A stretch of 64,000 nucleotides of DNA from IMG/VR virus record IMGVR_UViG_3300017754_001850, positions 2,451 to 66,450 of that record. One strand, 5' to 3'. A program made the position numbers and the translations under genes. This document shows positions 30,799 through 35,534 of this stretch, one piece after another; within the stretch, counting starts at the first letter, position 1; the number at the start of each line of letters is the position of its first letter. Below the pieces are notes generated by a model. The model had not been told where the DNA came from, ran no database searches, and saw only the letters and a list, made by a program, of their open reading frames with translations. This DNA is from a virus (taxonomy: Duplodnaviria > Caudoviricetes).

Positions 30799-32283
30799 TT
30801 ATGTAATTCTTACACCCTTTACGTGGCGGTACTTTGCTTGCGATCCCTCCGAGGTCGGGTTCTTCTCGACGACGAGTCCAGCCTCACGCGCCATATCAAG
30901 GATATTCGATGCAGACCACCTTCCCGGCATCGATGACTTGAATCGATCGATGAAGACTGAGGTTCTGGTGTCAGAGTGCTGGTCACGTTCGCAGTAATGT
31001 TCAAGGAAGGTCAGCATAGGGTTCTGGTCATCGCGATACTCAGCAATCTCAGCCACGCCTGGGTCAGAAAATCGGCCACCCTGATTGTGCAGTCGCTGCG
31101 CCCCCTCCAAAGCCCACGACAAAATTCCGTCGATCTCGCCCTTCAGCCGATCCCAAACGGTCGTATCCTGCTCGCTGGCGGGGATGACGTGGTTGAAGTG
31201 GATCAGGAGAAGGCGTCGGTATGTGGCGTTGGACTTGTCGTTGATGCGCGGCTTCTTGTTGGTGACGATGACGTGCTTACAGATGGGGATGTCCATCACC
31301 GGGGCGAGGTGCTTGGGGTCGAAAAGGATCGGCTCCTCAGTAGACACGAGTGTTTTGAAGCCGCCATCGGCGATCATTGCGTCAGATGTGAGTTCAGTGA
31401 GCAGGTTGACGAGCTTGCCGAGTAGAGGGGCGCGCTTCCGGTCGTCATCCATATGTTCAACGCTAACGGCGGCGATGTTCTCGCTGCCCAAAAGCTGCCG
31501 GAGAAGGTAAGGAATGGTCGACTTTCCGCAATCCGACTCGCCGACGCACAGCAAAGCCTTCTTGTAGCGGGCGTGCGGCATCAAGCAGTAGCCAAAATAC
31601 TCCTGTAGCGCAGCAATTTTGAGTTCTCCGTCGTCGTCCTTGCCGAAATACGTGTCCAGGCACCGCATGAGTTCAGGGCACTGGGACTTCTGGTTGTACT
31701 CCCACGGTATGCAGGTCTGGAGGTAATCTTCCTTCCGGTGAGGGTACATTTTCATGTCACGGATGTCGATTACACCGTTCGCGACTGGCACCTCGTAGGG
31801 CTGGATCTGCCGCCACTCGTGTTTATTTGTGTAAATTTTCGTAGTAATGTATGAGGTGATCTCGGCGCGGCGGTTCTTGGTGGTGGTTTTCTTGCCGTCA
31901 GCCTCAAGAGCGAGAATATTGAGCCTGGATGCCGCGATAGGCACCCATTTCTTCCCGTCGTACTCGTAAAGGTTGTCGTTGACGTTAATAAAGTCGTGGG
32001 TTTTAAGCAATTTCTCGGCGATATCGTTCGGCTGGGCCTCTTTCTCCTCCGGTTCGTCCTCTTCGACGACCTGCTTCGCCTTCACGGCCTTATCCAGCGC
32101 TGAAAGGTTGATGTCCTTGAGCCATTTTTTGATTGCTGTCCGATTTATCTGGTAGACCTCAATGTCCATCGCGGCCAGTGTGGAGGTCATACCCCAGATC
32201 ATCGCCGGGTTGTTCTGCTTTAACGCCTCGTTCACCTCTTCATCGAGAAGCGGGTCGTCGATATACTCGGTTACCGGCTCCAT
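30799..32283 (-). CDS. P4/D5-family SF3 replicative helicase
   Basis: D5_N-like region, GESDCGKST Walker A, GKLVNLLTE, TNKKP..DKSNATYRRL. Confidence 0.9.
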   Translation of the reverse strand: MEPVTEYIDDPLLDEEVNEALKQNNPAMIWGMTSTLAAMDIEVYQINRTAIKKWLKDINLSALDKAVKAKQVVEEDEPEEKEAQPNDIAEKLLKTHDFINVNDNLYEYDGKKWVPIAASRLNILALEADGKKTTTKNRRAEITSYITTKIYTNKHEWRQIQPYEVPVANGVIDIRDMKMYPHRKEDYLQTCIPWEYNQKSQCPELMRCLDTYFGKDDDGELKIAALQEYFGYCLMPHARYKKALLCVGESDCGKSTIPYLLRQLLGSENIAAVSVEHMDDDRKRAPLLGKLVNLLTELTSDAMIADGGFKTLVSTEEPILFDPKHLAPVMDIPICKHVIVTNKKPRINDKSNATYRRLLLIHFNHVIPASEQDTTVWDRLKGEIDGILSWALEGAQRLHNQGGRFSDPGVAEIAEYRDDQNPMLTFLEHYCERDQHSDTRTSVFIDRFKSSMPGRWSASNILDMAREAGLVVEKNPTSEGSQAKYRHVKGVRIT

Positions 32284-32816
32284 TGCAGGAACTCCTTCAC
32301 CAGCGACTCGACGGTCGGCTTGGCGTGGTCGGCGGCTGACTGGCGCAGGAGCGCGGCCTGCTCGGTAGTGCGCTGCTCTTGGTAGGCGGCGAGAATGTGC
32401 TGGCGTGTCATATAATCCAAGTCTTCGAGGAATGGGATGGATGTTTCGTAGTCGGGAGCGTTAACCATCTGCAGTCGGGTGAGACGACGCCACTCCATCG
32501 CCTCGTCGTGCAGGCGTTGGGCTTTAATCGCTTCGTAGGGGTGAACGGCAGGCTGTCGGGTGAGATGGATATTCAATTCAGAGGCGAGTAGTCGGATGGC
32601 GGCGGAGGTGGTGATGGAGTGGTATTTCGAGGCGAAGGTGATTAGGTCGCCACCAACCCCGCAGGCGTGGCACTTGAAGTACGCCGCGTGCAGCTTTAGT
32701 GATGGTGTTCGCTCTTTATGCCACTGGCAAAGCGCAGTTCCATTCTTGATCTTTATAAACCTGCTTGCGTATTCATCGACGCGCAAAGACGCCTTTATTT
32801 GCTGGATTGGCGTCAT
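32271..32816 (-). CDS. stand-alone CHC2 zinc-finger (primase ZBD) protein
   Basis: LCQWHKERTPSL...FKCHACGVGGD.I.F; no TOPRIM domain follows. Confidence 0.85.
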   Translation of the reverse strand: MTPIQQIKASLRVDEYASRFIKIKNGTALCQWHKERTPSLKLHAAYFKCHACGVGGDLITFASKYHSITTSAAIRLLASELNIHLTRQPAVHPYEAIKAQRLHDEAMEWRRLTRLQMVNAPDYETSIPFLEDLDYMTRQHILAAYQEQRTTEQAALLRQSAADHAKPTVESLVKEFLQWSR

Positions 32817-32818
32817 GG

Positions 32819-33310
32819 CTATGCCCTATGTCGAACGGGAGTGGTTAATGCTTTCTCAATAGGCCAGCTAGCTAGAACAATCCGATACCAAATAGCCGTC
32901 CTGTCTATCCCTGTTTCAGCGGCCCACTCGTCTGCGGTTTGGGTCTTCCCGTTAAACTCAAACCTTCTGACGTTGCGCCGGTTCCTGTTTTGTTCAGTAG
33001 CAGTAGACCACTTTACGTTACCAGGCTCGTACCCCTTAGAGTTGTCGATCCTATCAAGCGAATGCTTGTTGGTTGGGCGACGGCCAACGTCACGCAAGAA
33101 CGCTTGGTAGCTGTCTGCCCATTCCTTGCATACCGTGATTCCGCGAGATCCGTACCATTTTTTGTACTCTCTTGATTCGACACTTAAGCAGCGCCTTTTC
33201 ATGCACTCCCATGCGCGATATTCTGGCGATCTCTGACCACTTTTATTGCGGGCCTCCCCATGAGATTCACGGAAAATGCCAGTGCTTGGATTTCTGTGTT
33301 CCGGTGTCAT
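32819..33310 (-). CDS. HNH homing endonuclease
   Basis: EYRAW..MKRRC, RGITVC.EW, SLDRIDN.KGYEPGNVKW.T..EQ..NRR. Confidence 0.9.
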   Translation of the reverse strand: MTPEHRNPSTGIFRESHGEARNKSGQRSPEYRAWECMKRRCLSVESREYKKWYGSRGITVCKEWADSYQAFLRDVGRRPTNKHSLDRIDNSKGYEPGNVKWSTATEQNRNRRNVRRFEFNGKTQTADEWAAETGIDRTAIWYRIVLASWPIEKALTTPVRHRA

Positions 33311-33544: not shown

Positions 33545-33937
33545 CTATTTTATTTTCGTAACGGCCTCGGCGAGCGCGGCCATGCCGCCTTCCAGGTCGT
33601 GGGCGATCACGTAAATCCCCCCGCAGCGCTTAACGGTAGCCTCAAACTTCTCCTGCGCTTCCCGCTGCGTATCCTTGCCAATCTTCACTTCGATATGGCA
33701 CACCACCGCTACTCCATTGATGTGGATCCAGCCGCTCACATCGCCAGATCCGACGACGCCGTATTGCACGGGGCGGAACCATGGTGGCGTAATCCCACGC
33801 ACGATAAACTCAAACGCTCGTTTGAATGTCTGTATGGGGTATGCGGAGCCTACGTTCTGACGGAAAAGTCTACTGAGCGGGTACTTTTTCTGAACGGCTT
33901 CGATGAGCCGATTCTGCAAATTGGTAGCTTCGCTCAC
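33545..33937 (-). CDS. VRR-NUC / PD-(D/E)xK nuclease
   Basis: GSGDVSG...HIEVK.GKD.Q.EAQ.KF. Confidence 0.85.
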   Translation of the reverse strand: MSEATNLQNRLIEAVQKKYPLSRLFRQNVGSAYPIQTFKRAFEFIVRGITPPWFRPVQYGVVGSGDVSGWIHINGVAVVCHIEVKIGKDTQREAQEKFEATVKRCGGIYVIAHDLEGGMAALAEAVTKIK

Positions 33938-35373
33938 GCCCTCATTTTGGCATACGCGGCGCGGATAATCTCAGGGGTTGGTTTTTCCTTGAATAATCCC
34001 ATAAAACGTCCCCAGGCGAACCCTTTTTTATACCCGCGATCTTCCGCCATTTTCAACCAGTCCGCCATCTTTTTGATCTTCACATCGTCGCCAGCGCGTG
34101 CGACGTACCGCTTGATGGCTTCGGCCTTCTTCTGCTTTTGGTACTCAACTAGCGCCTCGTTGCGCTCTTTGATCTCCCTGCCGGTGGCGACGTATTCCTT
34201 GCCACACTCGGGGCACGTCGGTACGTAGGAGCGGAAGACGGCAAAGCAATCTTCGCAGCGGCGGAGGGTGAGTGCGTTGTCGCGTGGTTTGGAGGAGGCG
34301 GCTTCGGCGTCGGCTAGAGTCCAGTCGCGGTCGTCAGATGACAATCCGAACCTTGCCGTGTTACCGGCGTGGTCAAGTAGGATGGCTTCTGTCTTTGGGC
34401 GCGCGATCAACTTCAACCGCTGAAACGCCTCCTCGCGCTCGGCATCTGGCGTGTTCGCGTCGATTGCCAGCGACTCAACTCCAGCCGCGCGGAATTTGGC
34501 GGCGATAGCCTCGGCGTGCGCCCTATTGACAGCGTGGCAGACTGTGGGCAGGTGTTGCGCTTTATGCAACCACTGCTGGACGATATTGCCTACGATGCCT
34601 CGCTTGAGCATCACCGTCGCCACTTGTTCCTGGTTGAAGTCGTCTCCGGTGATCTGTACGCCACTCATGTCTGGCTCGTCTGGGCACCAGACTTTCGACG
34701 GAACAAGGAACCCTTTCGATATTAGTTCGTTGGTGGTTGGTCCCATCACGATAACGTCGGCAACTCGACCAAGCCCGATCCCATCTCCGCGACAAGGCGT
34801 GGCAGTGAAGAAGATTTGCGGGATGTGCTTGTGCCGGTCAATGACCTCCAGTCGAGCCTCGGACAGCAGGAGGTGCGCCTCATCCCACACGATGCAATCA
34901 ACGTCGAGCAGAGCGTCCCGAGCCACGAGCGTATCTAGGCTGCAGATGCGCGTCTTGTGGCCGGTGTCTTTGACGCCAGCCATCTGAATAGAGTGGGGTA
35001 TTCCCATCTCCTCGAAGCGCCTGGAGAGATCGAATACAAGCAATCGGCGCACGGTAACGACAGCCACGCTCTTGCCTTTAAGATAGGCGGAGTGGGCGAG
35101 CAGTTTGGTCAGGTGACCCTTGCCTGAACCGCATGGGGAAACGCCGACTGGTTTGCGGCCAGCGCGAATAGCGGCGCGAAGGTCGTCGAGCATTTTAGTC
35201 TGGTAGCTTCGATCGCCTTCCACCGGAGGCCACGCTCTGGCAACGCGGCCACGGCGCTGGAGCCAACTACTGACGGACGCTGAAGGGTGAGCATCAATAT
35301 CGGCCATCGCCCACGGGATGTCAGCGCCAAGGCTGATGGTGTTGACTTGGCAGAGGACGTGGAGGGGCTTCAT
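33934..35373 (-). CDS. SF2 (DEAH) helicase with motifs V-VI relocated to the N-terminus and a C-terminal zinc ribbon
   Basis: RSYQ, SPCGSGK, DEAH, TATP and motif IV in order. VLCQVNTISLGADIP and WLQRRGRVAR lie in aa 1-50. Confidence 0.9.
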   Translation of the reverse strand: MKPLHVLCQVNTISLGADIPWAMADIDAHPSASVSSWLQRRGRVARAWPPVEGDRSYQTKMLDDLRAAIRAGRKPVGVSPCGSGKGHLTKLLAHSAYLKGKSVAVVTVRRLLVFDLSRRFEEMGIPHSIQMAGVKDTGHKTRICSLDTLVARDALLDVDCIVWDEAHLLLSEARLEVIDRHKHIPQIFFTATPCRGDGIGLGRVADVIVMGPTTNELISKGFLVPSKVWCPDEPDMSGVQITGDDFNQEQVATVMLKRGIVGNIVQQWLHKAQHLPTVCHAVNRAHAEAIAAKFRAAGVESLAIDANTPDAEREEAFQRLKLIARPKTEAILLDHAGNTARFGLSSDDRDWTLADAEAASSKPRDNALTLRRCEDCFAVFRSYVPTCPECGKEYVATGREIKERNEALVEYQKQKKAEAIKRYVARAGDDVKIKKMADWLKMAEDRGYKKGFAWGRFMGLFKEKPTPEIIRAAYAKMRA

Positions 35374-35534
35374 TTACTCCCCGGCACCCTAGGCTCCTGC
35401 TTCGTCTCGATGCGCTTGGCGGGCACCGTGCAGTGCCTCCAGCACGTCGACGGACTGTACAGTGACATCTCATCAGCAGGCCACTCCTGCTGGCATTGCG
35501 TACAGTAGCCGGGTGGCTGTTTGCGGCGTTTCAA
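35370..35534 (-). CDS. small Cys-rich protein
   Basis: TTG start; CTQC...CWRHC; ATGA-coupled to the helicase. Confidence 0.5.
   Translation of the reverse strand: MKRRKQPPGYCTQCQQEWPADEMSLYSPSTCWRHCTVPAKRIETKQEPRVPGSK

Follow-up and report, generated by a model that had tools for sequence, protein, structure and literature searches.

A RadD-like phage helicase whose motifs V and VI stand at the N-terminus in a non-circularly permuted core

Can the core of a helicase be reordered along the polypeptide and still make an enzyme? The question is raised by a stretch of 64,000 nucleotides (the window) that covers positions 2,451 to 66,450 of the IMG/VR virus record IMGVR_UViG_3300017754_001850 (Duplodnaviria; Caudoviricetes). 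On its minus strand, 33934..35373 is a single uninterrupted open reading frame (ORF) encoding a protein of 479 residues (P0001) related to the helicases of superfamily 2 (SF2). The motifs follow one another along this protein as V, VI, Q, I, II, III and IV, and are succeeded by the last strand of the second RecA-like domain (RecA2) and by a zinc ribbon. This order, first pointed out in a preliminary description of the locus, is borne out by the ORF and by the profile matches reported below. The ORF, the profiles and the homologues all describe a RadD-like SF2 helicase with a non-circularly permuted core. The gene probably encodes an intact DNA helicase/ATPase maintained by selection, in which the block of motifs V and VI has been moved to the N-terminus, would fold back in cis and would have a single origin, as judged from sequence comparison and structural models.

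The protein can be divided into six parts, all on the minus strand. The relocated block (residues 1-48; 35230..35373) holds a strand at residues 6-9, motif V (LGADIP, 15-20), a strand at 24-27 and a helix at 34-44 that carries motif VI (QRRGRVAR, 39-46), with Q39, G42, R43 and R46. A new linker, PPVEGD (residues 49-54; 35212..35229), connects motif VI to the Q motif. It is followed by the first RecA-like domain, RecA1 (residues 55-220; 34714..35211), with the Q motif (RSYQ, 55-58), motif I or Walker A (GSGKG, 82-86), motif II (DEAH, 164-167) and motif III (TAT, 190-192). The RecA2 remnant (residues 221-345; 34339..34713) retains strands at 277-280 (the motif IV region), 301-304 and 330-334. 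It includes the internal deletion junction, located between P326 and K327 (nucleotides 34396/34395), directly before the strand ILLDHAGN and the four-cysteine ribbon. This single zinc ribbon (residues 346-400; 34174..34338) has C373, C376, C387 and C390, invariant across 106 aligned sequences, and gives weak matches to zinc-ribbon Pfam families. The C-terminal helical domain (residues 401-479; 33937..34173) is the least conserved part. Motifs Q, I, II, III, V and VI are all present with their catalytic residues, with the exception of G86, which stands in place of a Ser/Thr in the window copy.

The displacement is directly visible in the profile matches. Pfam Helicase_C (30.1 bits for the whole protein, gathering cut-off 23.5, E 6.2e-07) aligns its positions 67-109 with residues 5-47 and its positions 21-67 with residues 280-329 approximately, while ResIII (31.6 bits, cut-off 22.5) and DEAD (29.2 bits, cut-off 26) both fall on residues 55-194. 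PHROG 16, a family of phage DNA helicases, matches with an E of 5.5e-52 (178 bits) in two stretches of swapped order, positions 274-539 on residues 55-321 and positions 544-586 on residues 5-47. Helicase_C and PHROG 16 are thus each split at one profile position with the 3' piece first, which is far beyond chance. The collinear SF2 order Q-I-II-III-IV-V-VI is not the one found in this protein. In alignments, the canonical relatives carry about 45-48 residues with motifs V and VI exactly at the internal junction, close to the 50 or so given in the preliminary description, and the permuted proteins show a gap of about 46 residues there. Relative to a canonical segment order A-B-C, the protein reads B-A-C, and its C-terminal part still consists of the last RecA2 strand, the zinc ribbon and the helical domain. 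Neither of the circular orders (B-C-A or C-A-B) is matched; the chain has lost two of its native connections and gained two others. The rearrangement is a non-circular permutation, as had been maintained from the start. It is in frame and begins with its own ATG at 35373, which shares the tetranucleotide ATGA with the TGA of an upstream ORF of 54 residues, again as described previously.

Does the relocated block complete the domain that lacks it? AlphaFold2, supplied with 106 sequences, gave a model with a mean predicted local distance difference test score (pLDDT) of 94.4 and a predicted template modelling score (pTM) of 0.80, the first five stretches of ten residues scoring 97, 83, 97, 94 and 95. 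The block is modelled as a strand (6-9), a second strand (24-27) and a helix (34-44), which are the elements of a motif V-VI unit, and the same elements were obtained from the 24 permuted sequences only (pLDDT 89.3, pTM 0.77). Fragment complementation was then computed with ESMFold2 between residues 1-53 and the RecA2 remnant (residues 222-350), together with controls. The score was 0.68 against 0.06 for the best control; of 80 solved complexes, 58 attain the mark of this test, as do 2 of 110 mismatched pairs. At least 97% of the contacts are common to the runs, and the partner pLDDT is at least 64. In the contacts of lowest error, residues 5-8 lie against 277-279 and 300-303, and residues 24-26 against 276-280 and 332-333. 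Both moved strands are accordingly predicted to lie inside the RecA2 sheet, in the probable order 301-304 / 6-9 / 277-280 / 24-27 / 330-334, a placement of the first 50 residues that had been envisaged in the preliminary description. Two RecA-like domains with an ATP site between them are predicted by AlphaFold2, by the match to the RadD structure and by this docking. Sequential structure aligners never include the N-terminal block and match residues 53-365 of the model only, as expected of a non-sequential rearrangement.

On the basis of these models, the moved segment would comprise two inner β-strands of RecA2, motif V and the helix of motif VI that bears the arginine finger, and its former place would be after motif IV and ahead of the final strand of RecA2. 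Folding back in cis onto the three-strand remnant, it would restore a five-stranded sheet, RecA2 being built from two chain segments about 230 residues apart. The composite ATP site would be normal, with motifs Q, I and II contributed by RecA1 and motifs V and VI by RecA2. What would differ is the connection: a link of nine residues from R46 to R55, in which P49 and G53 are invariant, would join motif VI covalently to the Q motif, so that the chain would cross between the two motor lobes twice instead of once. The suggestion that this may be a functional enzyme with an additional tether between its RecA domains is supported by residue conservation as well as by the models.

The same docking could also be achieved between molecules, the block of one protomer entering the RecA2 remnant of another to form an obligate domain-swapped dimer or filament. 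Motif VI and the Q motif are joined by a short link of nine residues, and the two-chain prediction docks the block as a separate chain; the pass in this prediction reflects a likeness to the RecA fold, known from many solved structures, and is equally compatible with cis and trans. Both monomer models nevertheless place the block and its linker with confidence (pLDDT of about 95 over residues 41-60 with 106 sequences and of 86-89 with the 24 permuted sequences, for a pTM of 0.77-0.80). The constant length of the linker and its two invariant residues are as expected of a fixed intramolecular turn, and P0130 tolerates a linker with four additional residues. Completion in trans is therefore considered unlikely, and docking in cis is retained as the probable arrangement.

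In the alignment of 24 permuted sequences, the mean pairwise identity is 0.50 for the block (residues 4-48), 0.55 for the new linker (49-54), 0.49 for RecA1 (55-220), 0.49 for the RecA2 remnant (221-345), 0.47 for the zinc ribbon (346-400) and 0.34 for the C-terminal helices (401-479). At the sequence level, the relocated block is conserved to the same degree as the catalytic core, which indicates purifying selection. The invariant positions of this alignment include V10, G16, D18 and P20 in the motif V block, Q39, G42, R43 and R46 in motif VI, P49 and G53 in the linker, R55, Y57 and Q58 in the Q motif, and G82, G84, K85, D164 and E165 in Walker A and Walker B. The length of the linker is constant throughout the clade, except in P0130.

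The residue that follows the Walker A lysine is the exception to this picture. It is Ser (GKS) in 18 of the 24 sequences, and Gly in the window protein and in five others; the equivalent residue of Escherichia coli RadD, Ser38, coordinates Mg2+ (PMC9049331). Within the window copy, Walker A reads GSGKGH at residues 82-87 (window 35104-35122), where Gly86 is a single transition away from Ser (AGT/AGC), and position 86 switches between Ser and Gly among close relatives. This substitution at a Mg2+-coordinating position, found in six of the 24 clade members, opens the alternative that the fold is intact and that the lineage, or at least the GSGKG copy, has impaired ATPase activity and serves as a DNA-binding partner or a scaffold of the VRR-NUC-like nuclease encoded by the adjacent gene instead of as a working motor. 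Yet the invariance of K85, D164, E165, Q58, Q39, R43 and R46 would be hard to explain without nucleotide binding and hydrolysis. Moreover, the nearest canonical relatives, P0127-P0129, likewise read GKG, so that the variant already existed before the permutation and is evidently tolerated, and most of the permuted members have GKS. The scaffold hypothesis is for these reasons regarded as distinctly improbable, and an active ATPase is the role that we infer for the lineage.

A further sign of functional importance is provided by P0005 (831 residues, from a Logan contig of 38.8 kb), a permuted protein that bears an intein of about 350 residues (PF05203, Hint/homing-endonuclease type) inside Walker A, between GPCG and SGKS, a site equivalent to residues 81/82 of the window protein. 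Inteins typically persist in functionally essential sites. Among the canonical homologues, a hidden Markov model (HMM) of the V-VI block matches P0137 (853 residues) and P0156 (824 residues) in two pieces about 340 residues apart, which suggests an intein or another large insertion within the motif V-VI segment. Helicases of this family seem to be targeted frequently by mobile insertions.

How widespread is the permuted order? A word-indexed search covered 5.8 billion proteins and an exhaustive HMMER search covered 1.84 billion cluster representatives. The former returned a compact group, P0002-P0022, at 43-99% identity (E from 1e-119 to 0), of which P0002 is nearly the same as the window protein (99-100% identity). 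Below this group lies a clear gap, followed by canonical RadD-like proteins at 34% identity or less. All members of the first group have the V-VI block first, then a short linker and the Q motif, and are devoid of about 46 residues at the canonical site, while every aligned protein of the second group keeps the block in place. The HMMER search yielded 12,812 hits, about nine representatives of which align in one stretch from residues 1-5 onward (P0004, P0016, P0122-P0126, P0130 and P0151); alignment confirms that they are permuted, down to 33% identity. With the order classified by running the block HMM on 286 fetched homologues, 29 proteins are permuted (28 detected by the script and the intein-bearing P0005) and about 255 are canonical. 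In the alignment, the N-terminal block shows clear homology to the block that P0127-P0129 keep in place. Homologues with the same order do exist, and they form a small clade and not a common family already described, two points left to be checked by the preliminary description. One apparent addition was discarded: a translated match on L012 (tblastn, query 4-393) looked permuted, and its ORF proved to be canonical. Five permuted proteins of 527-537 residues (P0003, P0009, P0011, P0021 and P0122) have their last 70 residues or so swapped for a different and longer tail, conserved among them. Their scattered distribution among the subclades of the tree suggests that the C-terminal module has been exchanged by recombination.

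An artefact or a product of decay, be it a chimera created during assembly or the scrambled pseudogene of a defective phage, has nothing to recommend it beyond the oddity of the motif order and is effectively refuted: the same order recurs in 29 distinct proteins at 33-99% identity, a divergence that excludes a shared assembler error, drawn from many independent assemblies in four data sources (NCBI, JGI/IMG, ENA and Logan) with some contigs of 38-59 kb, including an independent IMG/VR contig, L002, that encodes a permuted orthologue of 469 residues with the same neighbors, and the frame is open, the start position conserved, the block as conserved as the core, the genome complete with terminal repeats and the junctions free of repeats of note.

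Concerning these repeats, the preliminary description had reported none at either junction that would suggest mis-assembly; only short ones, at chance level, were found close to them. A direct repeat of 14 nucleotides (13/14 identical) has one copy at 35201-35214, on the boundary between the block and the Q motif, and the other at 33922-33935, where the downstream gene begins. By our own estimate, chance would produce about 0.3 such pairs in 2 kb, and the rearrangement is too ancient by far for scars to persist in the DNA; this repeat was treated as probably fortuitous.

Did the rearrangement occur once? A maximum-likelihood tree of 85 rows was built after removal of the block from every sequence. 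It groups 24 of the 25 permuted proteins in one clade with a Shimodaira-Hasegawa-like approximate likelihood ratio (SH-aLRT) support of 99. A linker of the P-x-P type behind motif VI and a (P/R)-K remnant at the internal junction are common to all the permuted members, P0130 included. A sequence similar to the end of motif VI (R-x-x-P) is present twice, where the N-terminal block ends and again at the internal junction, as would fit a second copy of the block having been made upstream before the internal one was lost. This succession of duplication and deletion is the most likely route. The rearrangement would have arisen once in a lineage of phage helicases and would have been kept since.

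Several observations weigh against the reading of an active enzyme completed in cis and permuted once. In the free tree, P0130 falls among canonical proteins, with weak support. When the tree was constrained to hold all 25 permuted proteins together, its log-likelihood was 4.26 above that of the free tree, with a p-value of 0.54 in the approximately unbiased test (p-AU); two independent origins are therefore unsupported, the constrained tree being slightly better, and a single origin is fully compatible with the sequence data. The duplication route has left no surviving intermediate, a block at both positions being found by the block HMM in none of the 286 homologues. Docking in cis is deduced from the confidence values of the monomer models together with the two-chain prediction, and the structure predictors may have been drawn to the familiar RecA fold. 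By analogy with RadD, Gly at position 86 may also make the window copy a weak ATPase.

The closest known structure is that of E. coli RadD (YejH; PDB 6JDE, 7R7J, 8H5Y/8H5Z), with a Z score of 20.4 and a root mean square deviation of 4.5 Å over 294 residues, the match spanning residues 53-365 of the model and 4-379 of the RadD chain. RadD is also the best profile match (E 2.8e-69); this required a family profile, a phmmer search of the PDB with the single protein giving no match. Both proteins have the Q motif, a DEAH-type motif II, an ILD..GN strand (which in RadD comes after motif VI), a zinc ribbon and then a helical C-terminal domain. RadD is collinear (Q, I, II, III, IV, V, VI), whereas the phage protein has motifs V and VI at the N-terminus. 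The C-terminal domain of RadD interacts with SSB. Likewise, RadD has 586 residues and two zinc fingers, ZF1 and ZF2 (PMC9049331), against 479 residues and one four-cysteine ribbon in the phage protein. A score of 25.7 bits against the RadD equivalog model NCBIfam NF053632, whose cut-off is 720, designates the protein as RadD-like and not as a RadD orthologue. Of the same family are the canonical RadD-like helicases of phages (PHROG 16), such as those of Enterobacter phage Arya, Burkholderia phage Mica and Synechococcus phage S-H1, which are 28-35% identical over residues 55-454. They have the same zinc ribbon and a C-terminal helical region of the KGYK type and, unlike the window protein, keep motifs V and VI in place.

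Is this topology already known under another name? Matches were obtained in 833 deposited phage records, and all those listed start at residues 39-55 of the query, while a junction query (residues 1-90) had no match in 50,697 phage records. No DNA similarity to deposited phages was found. A single peptide pattern, run against 185,579 species genomes, retrieved three relatives that all match from residue 49 or later, a start that by itself implies the canonical order. In the full-text literature searched, most subscription journals lying outside its coverage, no report of an SF2 or RecA helicase with a permuted order was encountered, and the matches for "non-circular permutation" concern other folds and RNAs. 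One of these folds is the capsid protein of Bordetella phage BPP-1, reportedly a natural non-circular permutation of the HK97 fold. It is a precedent from phages for this kind of rewiring, albeit in a structural protein of unrelated fold that has no enzyme active site. As far as could be found, the topology of the helicase appears to be undescribed, and its members form a small clade without a name.

What does the permutation imply? Motif order is treated as a fixed signature of the SF1 and SF2 helicases (superfamilies 1 and 2) and is the basis of the domain models used for annotation, which is why the Pfam and PHROG profiles split on the window protein. A naturally selected clade of this kind would indicate that a RecA domain can form from non-contiguous segments, that a direct covalent bridge from motif VI to the Q motif is tolerated, or exploited, by the ATP site, and that non-circular permutations can be fixed within an enzyme core. 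A more far-reaching proposal, put forward tentatively and with more doubt than conviction, is that the mechanics themselves are different. The lobes would be doubly tethered across the ATP site, which would limit the opening of the cleft and couple adenine recognition to the position of the arginine finger. The protein would then operate as a gated switch or clamp for the VRR-NUC-like nuclease and not as a free inch-worming translocase, and it would contain the first natural SF1/SF2 RecA domain made of non-contiguous segments. The clade offers in any case a natural experiment on inter-lobe tethering and the ATPase cycle, on the co-translational folding of a discontinuous domain and on the origin of such rearrangements. 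There is also a practical warning, since permuted proteins are missed or mis-annotated by searches that rely on order and by structure aligners that proceed sequentially.

The genomic context gives an indication of the biological role. The source is a complete phage of 66,450 bp, which has direct terminal repeats and in which the helicase gene occurs once. This gene belongs to a leftward replication block that consists of the Cys-rich ORF of 54 residues, the permuted helicase, the VRR-NUC-like gene, an ORF of 52 residues, an HNH gene, a CHC2 gene and a D5_N/DUF5906 primase-helicase gene; the large terminase and portal genes come next on the opposite strand. The most likely role of the protein is that of an accessory ATP-driven DNA remodeller paired with the nuclease. 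The two would act together on branched intermediates of replication and recombination, such as forks, beside the D5-type primase-helicase.

The putative nuclease, of the VRR-NUC-like PD-(D/E)xK type (130 residues; 33545..33937, minus strand), is translationally coupled to the helicase, whose stop codon shares GTGA with its GTG start. Its match to VRR_NUC (PF08774) covers positions 8-112 of a profile of 116 and is below the cut-off (15.3 bits against 23.8, E 0.021), while the orthologue on L002 (L002:6398-6754), which overlaps its helicase gene by ATGA, reaches 24.3 bits against the same cut-off. About 40 homologues of the 130-residue ORF were retrieved, and PF08774 is precomputed on eight of those listed, at 51-73% identity. 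On the other side of the helicase, the ORF of 54 residues (35370..35534, minus strand), which has the cysteine pattern CxxC ... CxxxC and is coupled to the helicase through ATGA, gave no family match in the profile searches. A similar small ORF (CxxC ... CxxCC) directly precedes the helicase on L002 (L002:4764-4991).

Further along the block (window 32271-33310 and 30799-32283, minus strand), the VRR-NUC-like gene is separated by an HNH endonuclease gene (phrog_3377, E 1.5e-48) from a stand-alone ORF of 181 residues with a CHC2 zinc ribbon. The beginning of the D5_N/DUF5906 primase ORF (494 residues) is overlapped by this CHC2 ORF. At the corresponding place, L002 has a single ORF of 749 residues, as read by eye, and the primase may be split in the window phage.

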